From contig CAYUJV010000001.1 in assembly GCA_964445085.1 (NCBI GenBank), forward strand, positions 812 to 64,811: a DNA stretch of 64,000 nt, in the 5' to 3' direction. Position numbers and translations under genes: made by a program. The DNA is from an uncultured Burkholderiales bacterium (GTDB taxonomy: Bacteria > Pseudomonadota > Gammaproteobacteria > Burkholderiales > Thiobacteraceae). The notes under the pieces were generated by a model, which worked only from the letters and a program-made list of their open reading frames with translations, did no database searches and was not told the DNA's origin. Below, one piece after another: positions 27,665 through 34,614 of the stretch (position 1 is its first letter; each line of letters opens with the position of its first letter).

Positions 27665-29309
<1,645 letters not shown>

Positions 29310-29338: not shown

Positions 29339-29353
29339 GCAACGCCTGTGCCA
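29339..29353 (-). promoter_or_regulatory. sigma54 (-24/-12) promoter of the Rrf2 gene
   Basis: Minus strand reads TGGCAC-aggcg-TTGC, 30 bp upstream of the Rrf2 ATG. Confidence 0.55.
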
Positions 29354-29420: not shown

Positions 29421-29436
29421 TGTCGCAAACCATACA
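29421..29436. promoter_or_regulatory. NifA-type UAS shared by divergent promoters
   Basis: TGTCGCAAACCATACA. Centred about 77 bp from the minus-strand -24 and about 93 bp from the plus-strand -24. Confidence 0.6.
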
Positions 29437-29519
29437 CTCCGGCCCGGCTTGTCCGACATGCGACAGGCTTGGGTGGCGCGCCACCGCGCCAGGCCGCATG
29501 CCGACGAGGCCTGTGCGAT

Positions 29520-29535
29520 CGGAACACTTCTTGCT
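29520..29535 (+). promoter_or_regulatory. sigma54-like promoter (CGGAAC variant) of the receiver-draTG operon
   Basis: CGGAAC-acttc-TTGCT keeps the GG-N10-GC spacing. The same CGGAAC-N5-TTGC variant precedes amt. Confidence 0.45.
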
Positions 29536-29572: not shown

Positions 29573-29995
29573 ATGCAAATCGGCGTCGAAACCGCCAAGG
29601 CGGTGGACAACAAGCGCCTGTTCGTCGTGGCCAACGACGAGATCACCCGCATGGCGCTGCAGTTCATGCTGCACGACGAGAACGAGACCCACGACCTGCC
29701 CACGCTGGAGGCGGCCTTCGACAAGAGCATCGAGTGGAAGCCGGACCTGCTGCTGTTGGGCGTCGACATCGTGCAGGAGCGCGGCGTGGAAGTGCTCGCG
29801 CTCATCCGCTCGCGGCTGGCGGAAACGAAAATCCTGCTCGTGGGGGACACGCGCGACGATCCGCTGGTGGCCGCCTGCCAGCAGGCCGGGATCGACGGCC
29901 AGCTGTTCAAGCCGCTGACGGTGGAGGACGTGCGCAGAAAGGTGGACGGGCTGCTGGGGCGCAAGCGCGCCTCCATTCCGATTCACGCACTATGA
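29573..29995 (+). CDS. stand-alone response-regulator receiver domain protein
   Basis: CheY-like pattern: LFVVANDE ... PDLLLLGVD ... ILLVGDT ... LFKPL. 140 aa. Internal ATG of ORF 29318..29995. Confidence 0.7.
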   Translation: MQIGVETAKAVDNKRLFVVANDEITRMALQFMLHDENETHDLPTLEAAFDKSIEWKPDLLLLGVDIVQERGVEVLALIRSRLAETKILLVGDTRDDPLVAACQQAGIDGQLFKPLTVEDVRRKVDGLLGRKRASIPIHAL

Positions 29996-30810
29996 CCGTC
30001 GCCGCGCTGCGGGGACACAGCGCCAACCTGGTGGGCGTTCCCACCGGCCTGCTGGCGAGCGTCGCGTTCAACGAAGATCCGCTCCCTCTGCACATCCACG
30101 GCGTGCGTGCCGGCCATGCGCGGCTGTTCGATCTCCTGGCGACGGCGACCACACCCGCGGAGGCGGGGAAACGGTTTCAGGACTATATGGACGAGAGTTT
30201 CGACTTGCGCCCGAGGCAGACATCAGCCGGTGACGGCACCGTGCGCCGCTTCCGCGCCAGCTACCTGCGCCTGCTCAAGGGCTGGGGTTTCGACGCCAAC
30301 AGCCGCGAAGGGGCCGTCATCAAAGGCTGGGCGGAGAGCCGCTTCGGCCTGTTTCCGACCTTCCACAAGACAACACTCACGCGCTTTGGCTCCCAGGCCT
30401 GGGCGCGCTACGTGGAGGAGAAAATGTCCAGCCGCTTCCACAACAACGACATCTTCGGCCAGCTGGACCTGCTGTACGAATTTTGCCAGTGGTCGCTCGG
30501 CCGCTGGTTCCAGCCGGGACGGCGCCATGTGCGCCTGTACCGCGGCGTCAACGACTTCAGCGAGGACAGCCTGCTGCGCGGGCAGCCGAAGCCGCGCAGC
30601 GGGCCGGCCCTGGTGCGGCTGAACAACGTCGTCTCCTTCACCGCCCACCGCAGCATTGCCTGCGAATTCGGCGACTACATCCTGGAGGCCCTCGTGCCCA
30701 CCGTGAAGATCCTGTTCTTCAACGACCTGCTGCCGCGCCACGCGCTCAAGGGCGAAGCCGAATATCTGGCGATCGGCGGCGAGTACCGCGTCATGGTCAG
30801 CTATCTCTGA
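29992..30810 (+). CDS. draT: NAD+--dinitrogen-reductase ADP-D-ribosyltransferase DraT
   Basis: SANLVGVPTGLLASVAFNEDPLPLHIHGVR...FQDYMDESF...LYEFCQWS. ATGA overlap with the receiver gene. Confidence 0.85.
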   Translation: MTVAALRGHSANLVGVPTGLLASVAFNEDPLPLHIHGVRAGHARLFDLLATATTPAEAGKRFQDYMDESFDLRPRQTSAGDGTVRRFRASYLRLLKGWGFDANSREGAVIKGWAESRFGLFPTFHKTTLTRFGSQAWARYVEEKMSSRFHNNDIFGQLDLLYEFCQWSLGRWFQPGRRHVRLYRGVNDFSEDSLLRGQPKPRSGPALVRLNNVVSFTAHRSIACEFGDYILEALVPTVKILFFNDLLPRHALKGEAEYLAIGGEYRVMVSYL

Positions 30811-30819
30811 GAAGCGGCC

Positions 30820-31749
30820 GTGATCGGGGACGACGTGCAGGAACGCGCGCTGGGCGCCTATCTGGGCTTCGCCGTCGGCGACGCCCTGGGAGCAACGGTC
30901 GAATTCATGACAGCCGCCGAGATTCAACACAACTACGGCATGCACCGCGACATGATCGGTGGCGGCTGGCTCAAGCTCAGGCCGGGCGAGGTCACCGACG
31001 ACACGCAGATGTCCCTGGCGCTGGGACAGGCCATCGTCGACAGCGGCGGCTGGAATGCGCGCGCCGCCGCCGATGCTTTCGCCGCGTGGCTCAAGTCCAA
31101 ACCCATCGACGTGGGCAACACCTGCCGCCGCGGGATTCAGCGCTACATCATGGAGGGTACGCTGGCCGGCCCGCCCAACGAAGGCGACGCCGGCAACGGC
31201 GCCTGCATGCGCAACCTGCCGCTGGCGCTCGCGACGCTGACTGATGACGAAGCATTCGCGCGCGCGACCTTGGAGCAGTGCCACCTCACCCACCACCATC
31301 CCTTGTCGGACGCCGCCACGCTGGCCTTCGGAAGAATGACGCGCACCCTGATCCGCGGCGGCGGCTTCAGGGACTGCCGGGCGGAGGCGAACCGCCTGAT
31401 CGATGCGTTTCCGGTGTTCCGCTTCGACCCCTATCCCAGGCGCGCCTCGGGCTATATCGTCGATACGACCCAGACGGTGCTGCACTATTTTTTCCGCACC
31501 GACAACTTCGAGGATTGCGTGACCGAGGTGGTGAACCGCGGCGAGGACGCGGACACCAACGGCGCGCTGGCCGGCATGCTGGCGGGCGCCGCCTATGGCG
31601 TATCGGACATTCCGGGCTACTGGCTGAAGAAGCTGGACAAGAAAGTCCGGGCGCGCATCGAGGAGCAGACCGAGGCGCTGCTGGGCATCGCCGCCACAAT
31701 ACCCAAGGGGCAAGAATCGAGTCGGAAGCCCCGGCAACCTGCGCCCTGA
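30820..31749 (+). CDS. draG: ADP-ribosyl-[dinitrogen reductase] glycohydrolase DraG
   Basis: GTG start. ALGAYLGFAVGDALGATVEF...EVTDDTQM...GEDADTNGALAGMLAGA (ARH family signatures). Confidence 0.85.
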   Translation: MIGDDVQERALGAYLGFAVGDALGATVEFMTAAEIQHNYGMHRDMIGGGWLKLRPGEVTDDTQMSLALGQAIVDSGGWNARAAADAFAAWLKSKPIDVGNTCRRGIQRYIMEGTLAGPPNEGDAGNGACMRNLPLALATLTDDEAFARATLEQCHLTHHHPLSDAATLAFGRMTRTLIRGGGFRDCRAEANRLIDAFPVFRFDPYPRRASGYIVDTTQTVLHYFFRTDNFEDCVTEVVNRGEDADTNGALAGMLAGAAYGVSDIPGYWLKKLDKKVRARIEEQTEALLGIAATIPKGQESSRKPRQPAP

Positions 31750-31777
31750 ACCTTGTAATTTGAACTTTCGTGCCACC

Positions 31778-33826
31778 ATGGCCACTTTGATTTTTTATGA
31801 AAAGCCCGGCTGCGCGAACAATGCACGGCAGAAGCGGCTGCTGCTCGATGCCGGGCACGAACTCATCGTCCGCGACCTGCTGAGCGAGCCGTGGACGGCG
31901 CAGCGCCTGCTGACATTCTTCGACGGCCTGCCAGTCGCCGAGTGGTTCAACCGCGCCGCGCCGCAGGTGAAATCCGGCGAGATCGACCCGGCGCGCGTTG
32001 GGGCCGAGGCGGCGCTGAAACTGATGCTGAGCAATCCATTGCTGATCCGGCGTCCGCTGATCGAAGGGAACGGCTGGCGGCTTGCGGGCTTCGACGCCGA
32101 GTTCGTACGCAGGCACCTGGGCGTGGCACCGGACGATGCGCCGCGCGACCTCGAGTCCTGCCGCCGTCCACCTGGCGCGGCCCCCTGCCCCGCGCCCCAG
32201 GACAGCCGGCGCGCGGAGGTGGCGCTCGCCTACCACGAGCGCACCAAGCATCGCCCTGAGCGCTACGCCGCCGGTCCGGAGACCCTGGACTGGACGGGCC
32301 AGCCGGACCCGTTCCGTACATTCAAGGGAAGTCCCACCCTCCGCCTGCCGCTGTGCGGCGGGCGCCTGGCCACCTCCTTCGCCGGCATCTATACGCCAGA
32401 GGAAGTCTGGTCGCCGGCGCTATCGCTGGATGCGCTGGGCGCGCTGCTGGAACTGTCGCTCGGCCTGTCGGCGTGGAAGGAATACGGCCCGGACCGCTGG
32501 GCGCTGCGCTGCAACCCCTCCAGCGGCAACCTGCACCCGACCGAGGCCTACGTGATCGCGCGTGGCATCGCGGGACTGGATGACGGCCTCTATCACTACG
32601 CGAGCCGCAGCCACGCGCTGGAGCAACGCTGTCGCGCACCAGCGGATGGAGCGGCGAGCGAGCACGGGCTGTGGATCGGGCTCTCCTCGATCCACTGGCG
32701 CGAGGCGTGGAAATACGGCGAGCGTGCCTTTCGCTATTGCCAGCTCGACGTGGGCCATGCCCTGGCCGCGCTGCGCTACGCCGCCGGCGTGCTCGGCTGG
32801 CGGCTGCGCCTGGTGACGGCCTGCGAGCACTCGCATCTGGCGCGGCTGCTGGGCCTCGATCGGGTCGAGGATTTTCCCGGCGCGGAACGGGAGGACGCCG
32901 ACCTGCTGGTGCAGGTGCTGCCACGAACCGAACCCAAACTGACTGCCGCGGCGCCTGAGCCCTGGCCGGACGCGCACTCGATGTGGATGGGCCAGGCGAA
33001 TACCCTCGATCCCCATCCCATGTACAGCTGGCCGGTCATCGACGAAGTCGCGGCCGCCACGAAAAAAACCGGGCAGGCGACGGAAGCACCCGCGCGCAGC
33101 CAGTATCCGCCCGCGACCCCCGCCGCCGGGCTGCCCGCCGCCCAGGTCATCCTCGGCCGGCGCAGCGCGCAGCGTTTCGATCCGCAGTTCGTCCTGCCAG
33201 CCAAGGACTTTTTCCACCTGCTCGACAGCCTGCTTCACCGGCCGCACGCGCCGTGGGACGTATGGGACCATGGGCCCAGGGTTCATCCCGTTCTGTTCGT
33301 GCACCGCGTGGAGAGCATCGCGCCCGGGCTTTACATCCTGGTGCGTGCGCCGGACGCGGAGGTGCGGTTGCGCACGGCAATGAGCGATGAGTTCGAATGG
33401 GAACGCGTGCAAGGCTGCCCGGCACACCTTCCCCTGTTCCGCCTGCAGCCCGGCAAGTGGCACAAGGTCGCGCGCGCGGTGAGCTGCCAGCAGGCCATCG
33501 CCGCCGACAGCTGCTTCTCGCTGGGCATGCTGGCAGAGTTCGAACCCACCCTGCGGGAGGACGCCTGGCGCTACCGCCAGTTGCACTGGGAAGCAGGTCT
33601 GCTGGGGCACGTGCTGTATCTCGAAGCGGAAACGCTGGAGCTGCGCGGCACCGGCATCGGCTGCTTCCTCGACGATGCGTTCCACGAACTGCTGGGGCTG
33701 AAGGACCGCAGCTTCCAGTCCCTCTACCACTTCACGGTGGGCCGCGCGCTCAGCGACACGCGCATCACCACCCTGCCGCCTTACCCGGACCGCGAGGCGG
33801 TGCCCGACACGGAGCCCATGCCATGA
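31778..33826 (+). CDS. fusion protein: ArsC/Spx-fold 'nitrogenase-associated protein' domain plus tandem SagB/nitroreductase-like dehydrogenase domains
   Basis: N-terminus MATLIFYEKPGCANNARQKRLLLDAGHELIVRDLLSEPWT...WFNRAAPQVKSGEI. After a Pro/Ala linker comes AYHERTKHRPERYAAGPETLDWTGQPDPFR...CNPSSGNLHPTE...GIGCFLDD. Confidence 0.75.
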   Translation: MATLIFYEKPGCANNARQKRLLLDAGHELIVRDLLSEPWTAQRLLTFFDGLPVAEWFNRAAPQVKSGEIDPARVGAEAALKLMLSNPLLIRRPLIEGNGWRLAGFDAEFVRRHLGVAPDDAPRDLESCRRPPGAAPCPAPQDSRRAEVALAYHERTKHRPERYAAGPETLDWTGQPDPFRTFKGSPTLRLPLCGGRLATSFAGIYTPEEVWSPALSLDALGALLELSLGLSAWKEYGPDRWALRCNPSSGNLHPTEAYVIARGIAGLDDGLYHYASRSHALEQRCRAPADGAASEHGLWIGLSSIHWREAWKYGERAFRYCQLDVGHALAALRYAAGVLGWRLRLVTACEHSHLARLLGLDRVEDFPGAEREDADLLVQVLPRTEPKLTAAAPEPWPDAHSMWMGQANTLDPHPMYSWPVIDEVAAATKKTGQATEAPARSQYPPATPAAGLPAAQVILGRRSAQRFDPQFVLPAKDFFHLLDSLLHRPHAPWDVWDHGPRVHPVLFVHRVESIAPGLYILVRAPDAEVRLRTAMSDEFEWERVQGCPAHLPLFRLQPGKWHKVARAVSCQQAIAADSCFSLGMLAEFEPTLREDAWRYRQLHWEAGLLGHVLYLEAETLELRGTGIGCFLDDAFHELLGLKDRSFQSLYHFTVGRALSDTRITTLPPYPDREAVPDTEPMP

Positions 33827-34614
33827 GCCACGAAAAACCCTTTCAGCGCATCGACGCCGAAGCCGCGCGCCGCCTGCTCGCCCGCGGCAAGGTGCTGGTG
33901 CTGGATTCCCGCGACCAGGTTCGCTTCGACCTGGCGCACATTCCCACGGCGCGGCACCTGACCAGCGGCAATCTGGACGCCTTCGTGCTCGCCACGCCGA
34001 AAACCACGCCGGTGCTGATCTACTGCTACCACGGCAACGCGAGCCAAACCCACGCCCAGACCTTCGCCGACTTCGGCTTTGGCGAGGTCTACAGCCTGGA
34101 TGGCGGCTTCGCCGCTTGGCAGCGGGCGCAGCCGAAATCGTCCCCGCCCACGCTCACGCTGCGGCTTGCCCAATGGCTGCGGGAACATGGCTATCCCGCC
34201 GACGACCTCGACGCGGTGGCAGAACACGGCATGACGCCCCTGATGCGCGCCGCCAAGCTGGGCGACACGGCGATCGTGTTCGAACTGATCCAGAGCGGCG
34301 CCGCCCTCGACGCCACCAACGTGGACGGCAATACCGCGCTGTGGCTGGCCTGCGTGGGCGAAAGCCTGGAGGCCATCGACCTTCTCATCCGCGCCGGCGC
34401 GAACCCGGACCACCAGAACGATAACGGTGCCACCTGTCTGATGTATGCCGCCTCGACGGGAAAGCATCGGGTGGTGGAGCAGTTGCTGGCGTCCGGGGCG
34501 GACCCGCGGCTGAAGAGCCTGGACGATTTCACCGCGCTGGACATGGCGGCGACGATCGAGTGCCTGCGGACGTTGCGGAAGGCAACGAAAGACCCCACGC
34601 CGATGGCGGGCTGA
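33823..34614 (+). CDS. rhodanese (GlpE-type) - ankyrin-repeat fusion protein
   Basis: Active-site loop CYHGNAS and DGGFAAW, followed by ankyrin repeats (GMTPLMRAAKLGDTAIVFELIQSGAALDATNVDGNTALWLA...). ATGA overlap with the upstream gene. Confidence 0.75.
   Translation: MSHEKPFQRIDAEAARRLLARGKVLVLDSRDQVRFDLAHIPTARHLTSGNLDAFVLATPKTTPVLIYCYHGNASQTHAQTFADFGFGEVYSLDGGFAAWQRAQPKSSPPTLTLRLAQWLREHGYPADDLDAVAEHGMTPLMRAAKLGDTAIVFELIQSGAALDATNVDGNTALWLACVGESLEAIDLLIRAGANPDHQNDNGATCLMYAASTGKHRVVEQLLASGADPRLKSLDDFTALDMAATIECLRTLRKATKDPTPMAG

Follow-up and report, generated by a model that had tools for sequence, protein, structure and literature searches.

DraB and NifO, found in lists of nif and dra operon genes from the early 1990s onwards, have no assigned function. 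Both appear as uncharacterised, nif- or dra-linked ArsC-like proteins in the available part of PMC5249018, which also gives the order draTGB for Azospirillum brasilense and reports a suspected influence of NifO from Azotobacter vinelandii on how molybdenum is partitioned between nitrogenase and nitrate reductase. DraB of Rhodospirillum rubrum is listed as co-expressed with DraT and DraG (PMC6067124, available part). A 64,000-nt stretch of contig CAYUJV010000001.1 from an uncultured Burkholderiales bacterium (family Thiobacteraceae, assembly GCA_964445085.1), called here the window and used for all coordinates, carries a gene in which a DraB/NifO-like domain continues without a break into SagB2, a putative flavoprotein of about 540 residues. 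The source is a metagenome-assembled genome (MAG) of 224 contigs, 96% complete. This draB::sagB2 gene is a genuine in-frame fusion and, judged from comparison with related loci, a lineage-specific fused variant of a conserved nif accessory operon. The words fusion and nitroreductase occur 0 times in the available part of PMC5249018, and a literature search, with subscription journals mostly outside its coverage and supplements not included, gave no account of the flavoprotein in a nif context.

The window protein shares with DraB of A. brasilense and R. rubrum and with NifO of A. vinelandii a full-length TIGR01616 domain and the slot after draT-draG, together with the ArsC/Spx fold, an N-terminal PGC cysteine, a C-terminal cysteine pair and linkage to nif genes. 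Where those are free proteins of about 130-160 amino acids, its DraB part is joined covalently to the 540-residue putative flavoprotein. Relative to the draTGB operon, the window adds a pseudo-receiver gene in front and a rhodanese-ankyrin gene behind.

The fusion gene (31778..33826, + strand) is a single stop-free open reading frame (ORF) of 682 amino acids, the fourth gene of its operon, with its ATG at 31778, 28 nt past the draG stop; its translation bears the motifs quoted in the first-pass annotation. Residues 1-128 (31778..32161), with Cys12 in the PGC motif, form the DraB/NifO-like ArsC-fold domain. The NCBIfam model TIGR01616, 'nitrogenase-associated protein', matches residues 2-128 with 153.7 bits (cut-off 109) over profile positions 1-126 of 126, and in a genome-wide search the fusion was the only TIGR01616 match above cut-off in its own genome (158.2 bits). 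The C-terminal part, residues about 146/147-682 (32216..33826), is SagB2, a tandem SagB-like nitroreductase predicted to form a pseudo-dimer within one chain. It matches the SagB domain model TIGR03605 in two stretches (106.8 bits, cut-off 78.4), and Pfam places Nitroreductase on two stretches of the protein besides ArsC. YHERTKH, NPSSGNLHP and WKY lie in the first half of SagB2, RRSAQRF and GIGCFLDD in the second. Database names of the fused proteins are all automatic ('nitrogenase-associated protein', 'ArsC/Spx/MgsR family protein' or 'nitroreductase family protein'), and a search of the ESM Atlas gave automatically named SagB/ThcOx clusters only.

Structure comparisons agree with these assignments. 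With phmmer, the 682-residue protein matched PDB entry 3EO7 in three stretches spanning both halves (E 6e-32). In a search of PDB chains with a profile of 74 relatives, the same 511-residue tandem nitroreductase was matched at E 1.6e-44, and the N-terminal domain matched ArsC, Spx and YffB chains, residues 1-98 aligning to residues 1-100 of Escherichia coli ArsC chains. An AlphaFold2 model of the fusion, built on the 74-row alignment, had a mean predicted local distance difference test score (pLDDT) of 85.6 and a predicted template-modelling score of 0.78. Foldseek placed 3EO7 on top for this model (E 1.9e-26, 551 columns, TM score 0.74 on the target), followed by the azoline oxidases ThcOx, BmdC and McbC; the N-terminal domain led to Spx, ArsC and YffB, and 1NOX was also among the fold matches. 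These profile and fold matches to both parts bear out the two domain assignments of the first-pass annotation, a small nif-linked ArsC/Spx-fold protein of about 125 residues and a SagB-type region of about 540 residues in two nitroreductase-like halves. Its further proposal, a thiol domain tethered to an FMN-type (flavin mononucleotide) enzyme, is consistent with the predicted domains and with the conserved cysteines described below: the fold and the motifs RRSAQRF and NPSSGN fit SagB2 as a putative FMN enzyme. In this sense the earlier observation is confirmed, and the interpretation attached to it is partly supported.

The first-pass annotation had asked whether the junction might be an assembly or frameshift artefact. 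Such an error, merging two ordinary genes, would not be strange in a 224-contig MAG, and draB and sagB2 are separate in most relatives, often one base of frame apart. Against it, direct translation gave a fused ORF of 670-691 amino acids without internal stop in L001-L005 and L007, six genome loci that belong to Sulfuriferula, to Hydrogenophilales and to unclassified MAGs; among them, L002 comes from a complete chromosome, that of Sulfuriferula sp. GW1. Dozens of proteins of 650-715 amino acids and differing origin carry both Pfam domains; the DraB part is present in 61 of 74 aligned database proteins, and the junction residues are kept within the fused clade. At read level, Logan contigs were consulted. 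One from an independent study (X3, 3669 nt) spans 31700-32977 with 76 substitutions and a sole indel at 31764, which is intergenic, and a landfill-metagenome contig (X4) spans 31867-32532 without gaps and with 46 substitutions. Two further Logan runs (X1 and X2) are identical to the window, but may be the source of the same DNA. The contigs of two independent studies thus cross the junction free of indels, and an artefact is ruled against by them together with the six loci and the dozens of fused proteins; we consider it scarcely credible.

The segment between the two domains, CRRPPGAAPCPAP (32159..32215), had been described as a Pro/Ala-rich linker. It does join the domains, yet it is also the C-terminal cysteine-pair tail of DraB itself, since a C-x(6-9)-C tail likewise terminates 4 of 5 stand-alone DraB relatives. 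The statement that a single cysteine occupies the ArsC-like active-site position holds for C12, which is kept in the PGC position in 61 of 61 fused proteins of the alignment, but two more cysteines in the supposed linker are conserved besides, C128 in 60/61 and C137 in 55/61. In the AlphaFold2 model pLDDT falls below 50 at residues 121-123 and 126-139, and these very low values suggest that the C128/C137 tail of the DraB part is flexible.

SagB2 is highly constrained. Among 537 residues compared in 78 sequences, drawn from both clades of the tree described below, 118 positions are near-invariant; the set includes the NPSSGNLHP and RRSAQ motifs and eleven histidines. Cysteines C321, C570 and C629 and the pair K312-Y313 are each kept in 78/78 relatives. 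K312-Y313 stands at the start of a long central helix (306-338) in the AlphaFold2 model. C629, in 'GIGCF', presumably falls on the strand that, in structures of the NfsB type, touches flavin N5 with its backbone.

The nearest structure, 3EO7, is Ava_2154 of Anabaena variabilis, a putative nitroreductase known as an unpublished structural-genomics entry (PMC5108345, PMC8795117, available parts). Like SagB2 it consists of two nitroreductase halves in tandem and opens with YHERTK. At about 22% identity it differs from SagB2 in having Arg-Tyr where the first half of SagB2 has the invariant Lys-Tyr, and Ile and Gly at the positions of the invariant C321 and C629. The lack of equivalents in 3EO7 suggests that these cysteines mark the nif-type SagB2 family.

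The azoline dehydrogenases McbC, ThcOx and BmdC, from thiazole/oxazole-modified microcin (TOMM) and non-ribosomal peptide synthetase pathways, are the other close comparison. TIGR03605 above cut-off and the fold matches are shared with them, and K312-Y313 may correspond to the catalytic Lys-Tyr of McbC-type TOMM dehydrogenases, which is described at the start of a long central helix (PMC6395948; bioRxiv 10.1101/2023.09.25.559410; available parts). A pairwise alignment to ThcOx ended before K312-Y313, short of a comparison with K201-Y202 of McbC. SagB2 differs in being a tandem pseudo-dimer, not a homodimer, in having no recognition-element (RRE) or peptide-clamp domain and no YcaO or precursor partner, and in its nif context and three family-specific invariant cysteines. 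A peptide azoline dehydrogenase of a ribosomally synthesised and post-translationally modified peptide pathway would call for a YcaO cyclodehydratase. YcaO (PF02624) gave 0 matches in the 96%-complete genome, while control genomes gave matches; the operon holds no precursor-like gene, and TIGR04511 scored 84 bits on the fusion against a cut-off of 240. A conventional TOMM azoline dehydrogenase was rejected because no YcaO was found and TIGR04511 fell far below its cut-off, and we hold this role to be very improbable.

How common the covalent form is was assessed in the best 80 of 594 genome stretches encoding a relative, in which the window proteins were searched by tblastn. The draB-sagB2 pair, fused or adjacent, occurs in 41/80 loci: the two are fused in one ORF in 6/80 and are separate adjacent genes in 35/80. 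In 5/80 (L012, L057, L067, L075 and L078) draB lies elsewhere in the locus, and the remaining loci have no draB match within them. Twenty of the 35 separate junctions were inspected. The 12 frame-shifted ones all overlap by ATGA or GTGA, and the other 8 have an in-frame stop followed a few codons on by an ATG of its own. Programmed read-through or selenocysteine insertion at these 8 stops is out, as they are a mixture of TAG, TGA and TAA, each with a nearby ATG; overlaps, mixed stops and own start codons point instead to ordinary translational coupling. In L013 and L019, from uncultured Alphaproteobacteria MAGs, nifH is spread over two or three frames, probably through assembly frameshifts, so the 'separate gene' calls there weigh less.

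A quick IQ-TREE phylogeny of the flavoprotein part (109 rows, SH-aLRT support, an approximate likelihood-ratio test) places the window inside a fully supported betaproteobacterial clade of 16 rows, 11 of which are fused. Within this clade the two parts have also been split again (L010/P0040), and in L008/P0043 the DraB domain has been deleted. In L008 only the last ~45 residues of that domain are left, and in L010, a Thiobacillus MAG, the parts are out of frame with each other and separated by additional sequence. Further fused groups on the tree are a Rhodoblastus-like clade, Methyloglobulus (P0045, P0050), P0037 and P0038. By parsimony the fused state changes 9 times, at least 3 of these changes being forced by well-supported branches; on this tree fusion and fission of draB and sagB2 have recurred at least three times. 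In a sample of 301 genomes of the phylum, among which related genomes are not independent, the fused form was found in the window's own genome only. By these comparisons the gene pair is the rule and the fusion a lineage-specific exception, the betaproteobacterial lineage of the window having merged draB and sagB2.

SagB2 is fused to other partners as well. Direct translation gave stop-free SagB2::rhodanese ORFs in three Beijerinckiaceae loci (L021, L024 and L032) and a stop-free SagB2::rhodanese::ankyrin ORF in L036. The protein libraries add SagB2-rhodanese proteins (P0081, P0092, P0140), SagB2-rhodanese-ankyrin proteins (P0124, P0155) and one SagB2-ankyrin protein (P0177). Since covalent fusions of SagB2 to every one of its neighbours (DraB, rhodanese and ankyrin) are found, the products probably act together with SagB2 as hub; such Rosetta-stone fusions are classical evidence for joint action, here of the operon products.

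The operon of the window lies divergent from nifHDK, its genes following one another closely on one strand. Its first gene (29573..29995, +) encodes a single-domain pseudo-receiver (Pfam Response_reg, E 5e-10). Aligned to PhoP (1MVO), its phospho-acceptor Asp is replaced by Gly (LLLLGVD versus LIVLDV), the acidic pair DD by AN and the conserved Thr by Gly; by this alignment the phosphorylation site is lost. Next come draT, for dinitrogenase reductase ADP-ribosyltransferase (29992..30810, +; Pfam DRAT, E 1.6e-102), its ATG overlapping the receiver TGA as ATGA, and draG, for ADP-ribosyl-[dinitrogen reductase] hydrolase (30820..31749, +; TIGR02662, 456.8 bits, cut-off 337), so that draT, draG and draB follow each other on one strand. 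Behind the fusion, with the same ATGA overlap at its TGA, lies a gene for a protein with a GlpE-like rhodanese domain (loop CYHGNAS) and ankyrin repeats (33823..34614, +). NF001195, the GlpE model, scores 95.8 bits on the rhodanese, slightly below its cut-off of 102, and the active-site C68 is invariant in 35/35 aligned homologues.

In the divergent intergenic region a motif search found two NifA-type upstream activator sites, TGT-N10-ACA, at 29421-29436 and 29450-29465; the motif occurs 14 times in the window, where 5.8 occurrences would be expected. A candidate sigma-54 (-24/-12) promoter, CGGAACACTTCTTGCT (29520..29535, +), stands 38 nt before the receiver ATG, with GG-N10-GC spacing and 2 mismatches to TGGCAC-N5-TTGC. 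In 40 of 43 receiver-bearing loci the 330 nt preceding the receiver gene hold both a GG-N9-TGC element and a TGT-N10-ACA site, and the -24/-12 element there mostly reads GGAAY-N5-TTGCT. The operon is thus placed behind a predicted sigma-54 promoter and predicted NifA sites. Between nifH and the receiver operon lies a gene for an Rrf2-family (IscR-like) regulator (28854-29300, -), which has its own sigma-54 element, an exact TGGCAC-N5-TTGC at 29339-29353 (-), and has the two NifA sites in common with the divergent receiver operon. Rrf2 homologues occupy the equivalent position in L001, L003, L005, L007, L008 and L010, all betaproteobacterial relatives of the window.

The same surroundings recur in the related loci. 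A receiver homologue is the first gene in 43/80 loci, and sagB2 has a rhodanese and/or ankyrin homologue behind it in 49/80, as a separate whole gene in 39 and in other arrangements in 10. nifH is divergently upstream wherever the contig extends that far. The suggestion that the fused protein belongs specifically to the draTG operon was not upheld. Of the 41 loci with the draB-sagB2 pair, only 9 have draG between receiver and draB, and in 27 the receiver is followed by draB within 220 nt, leaving no room for draTG; a second clade of the flavoprotein, beside nifZ, nifU, nifS or nifV and without draB, speaks against such specificity too. These counts mark the module as a NifA-type nif-region operon, not a draTG-specific one. 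Gene content defines the conserved unit as Asp-less receiver, draB, sagB2 and rhodanese-ankyrin, with draT-draG apparently inserted between receiver and draB in some lineages. In L057 the order is draT, draG, sagB2, rhodanese-ankyrin, draB. In L003, L007 and L010 a gap of ~100-140 nt separates receiver and draG, draB follows, and no draT match was found in the locus, so that the operon has the removing enzyme without the modifying enzyme.

As an overall reading of this unit we propose a thiol/persulfide-flavin relay complex of DraB, SagB2, the rhodanese-ankyrin protein and the receiver that serves nitrogenase, a proposal about which belief and doubt are evenly balanced. The four products would assemble into one complex with SagB2 as hub, passing reducing equivalents or sulfane sulfur among three centres: an FMN/cysteine centre in SagB2 (C321, C570 and C629), the DraB cysteines, where C12 would be joined by a flexible C128/C137 tail that swings like an arm, and the rhodanese cysteine, which would carry a persulfide. 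Ankyrin repeats and pseudo-receiver would act as docking modules, the client probably being a nitrogenase component or its assembly machinery, and nitrogenase would benefit through supply of sulfur for Fe-S clusters and cofactor, or through repair or redox protection in oxygen-respiring diazotrophs. Covalent fusion would merely fix the 1:1 stoichiometry and proximity of a pre-existing working pair. AhpF, NTRC, MerA with NmerA and the CoA-disulfide-reductase-rhodanese persulfide reductases, which we take to be flavoenzymes tethered to a thiol-carrier or rhodanese domain, may serve as a working analogy: they too would combine a thioredoxin-fold or rhodanese cysteine domain, a flexible tether and a flavin/cysteine centre, to which the tethered domain delivers a disulfide, a persulfide or a thiophilic substrate. 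They differ in having the pyridine-nucleotide-disulfide-oxidoreductase fold and defined redox disulfides, where SagB2 has the nitroreductase/SagB fold.

The distribution of SagB2 ties it largely to nitrogen fixation. An exhaustive library held 846 cluster representatives at E<=1e-30, and the tree has two clades, one linked to draB/rhodanese (82 rows) and one stand-alone (27 rows). Members of the latter are found in 13 Methylococcaceae loci beside nifV, nifS, nifU and iscA, with nifZ directly upstream in 10. Stand-alone sagB2 also follows nifZ directly in L065 and L075, lies beside nifU, nifS and a NifA-like activator gene in L058, and in L054 (Gallionella) stands amid a nifE/N-like component-1-type gene, a nifX-like gene and genes for ferredoxin, flavodoxin, iscA, nifU and nifS. 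Of the 301 sampled genomes, 41 have a full-length SagB2 homologue, and nifH is present in 22 of these against 19 of the 260 SagB2-negative ones, related genomes again not being independent; the nifH-positive genomes also number 41, namely 40 over the cut-off and one cut at a contig end.

Several observations weigh against the relay complex. The Asp-less receiver, the ankyrin repeats and the draT/draG genes in 9/41 loci fit a regulatory role equally. Nineteen of the 41 SagB2-positive genomes show no nifH; some of these are fragmented MAGs, and five are complete, belong to one family and carry homologues 40-45% identical. Four loci with stand-alone sagB2 (L066, L073, L077 and L080) have no nif gene within 4 kb. 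These genomes and loci indicate that the family is not strictly nif-bound. In addition, about 9 sampled genomes have DraB with no SagB2 detected among the 3 candidates scored per genome.

A regulatory role, along the lines of the sensor suggested in the first-pass annotation, could take the form of a redox or energy sensor for nitrogenase switch-off, a flavin/thiol protein that reports the redox state and modulates DraT/DraG or NifH via pseudo-receiver and ankyrin repeats. The place of draB after draT-draG in the window and in 9/41 loci, the published draTGB order of A. brasilense (PMC5249018), the co-expression listed for R. rubrum DraB (PMC6067124), a second-hand statement, credited to Liang et al. 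1991, that DraB affects DraG, and the adaptor-type domains flanking the operon all speak for it. It is hard to reconcile with the 27/41 loci in which receiver, draB and sagB2 follow without draTG between, and with L003, L007 and L010, where the operon has draG and no draT match. The intact GlpE-like rhodanese loop in 35/35 homologues and the 118 near-invariant residues of 537 in SagB2 look enzymatic, and the second SagB2 clade sits with the assembly genes nifUSVZ. On balance a sensor is unlikely.

The relay complex can be made more specific as an accessory enzyme complex under NifA control, not recognised before, with which aerobic diazotrophs would handle sulfur for their nitrogenase, though in this narrow form we find it decidedly doubtful. 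GlpE uses thioredoxin as sulfur acceptor. The GlpE-like rhodanese would split thiosulfate into sulfite and a persulfide, which the DraB cysteines and the flavin/cysteine centre of SagB2 would resolve. Sulfide and a sulfite-derived 'ninth sulfur' would then be available for cofactor assembly, or damaged clusters would be re-reduced; sulfite is an in vitro source of the ninth sulfur of NifB-co (review, PMC10701300, available part).

Processing of an oxyanion or of molybdenum is another conceivable role, in which Cys12 would capture molybdate or another tetrahedral oxyanion, and electrons from the flavoprotein and sulfur from the rhodanese would prepare molybdenum for FeMo-cofactor. TIGR01616, which has no other match above cut-off in this genome, marks the N-terminal domain as NifO-like; the domain adopts an ArsC fold and has one cysteine near its N-terminus, and DraB is encoded beside nifQ in L075. 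An influence of NifO on molybdenum partition is suspected (PMC5249018). Yet this link of NifO to molybdenum is indirect, and no feature of SagB2 suggests metal handling. By the equivalog model the domain is no glutaredoxin-coupled arsenate reductase ArsC either (NF008107, 13.4 bits against a cut-off of 121). The molybdenum role appears quite improbable.

Defence against oxygen or oxidants has likewise little probability. SagB2 would here be an NAD(P)H-oxidising flavoenzyme that reduces thiols of nitrogenase components or consumes O2 nearby. Most of the named hosts (Xanthobacter, Methylococcaceae, Beijerinckiaceae, Thiobacillus/Sulfuriferula) fix nitrogen under aerobic or microaerobic conditions, NADH oxidases are among the proteins with a nitroreductase fold, 1NOX being one of the fold matches, and some distant members carry an aldo/keto-reductase-like C-terminal extension (P0152, a weak match). 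No NAD(P)H site was identified in SagB2, however, and the rhodanese would stay unexplained; the idea also overlaps the repair or protection branch of the relay complex. The extension is found in P0152, P0154 and P0173 (~1030 amino acids, ~45% identical) and measures ~480 amino acids; in P0152 its aldo/keto-reductase match has E 1e-12, and it could be a built-in NAD(P)H module.

By these comparisons DraB has a fixed partner, a highly conserved putative flavoprotein with three invariant cysteines, and the orphan draB becomes part of a defined candidate complex with testable chemistry under predicted NifA/sigma-54 control near nifH. Sulfur handling, if true, would be the first biochemical role for DraB/NifO. 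As a natural single polypeptide the fusion is handy for expression, flavin analysis and structure work, and the unfused operon is present in the genetically tractable hosts Xanthobacter and Methylococcus, the genes being separate in X. autotrophicus and M. capsulatus, for instance. If the complex feeds or protects nitrogenase, it would be relevant to moving nitrogen fixation into new hosts.

The window's own genome holds a second SagB2 copy of the stand-alone type, broken over two contig ends (C25:20-856 and C112:3-494; L082 and L083). It is 53-62% identical, and its visible neighbours are non-nif genes. In a Sulfuriferula MAG (L077:10623-13352) a stand-alone paralogue lies about 900 nt from a gene for a molybdopterin oxidoreductase with a BFD-like [2Fe-2S] domain. 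This oxidoreductase resembles assimilatory nitrate reductase, which is curious given the published link between NifO and nitrate reductase. In Novosphingobium album (L053:4407-5119), genes for a DUF6156 protein and a truncated globin lie upstream of the flavoprotein gene.

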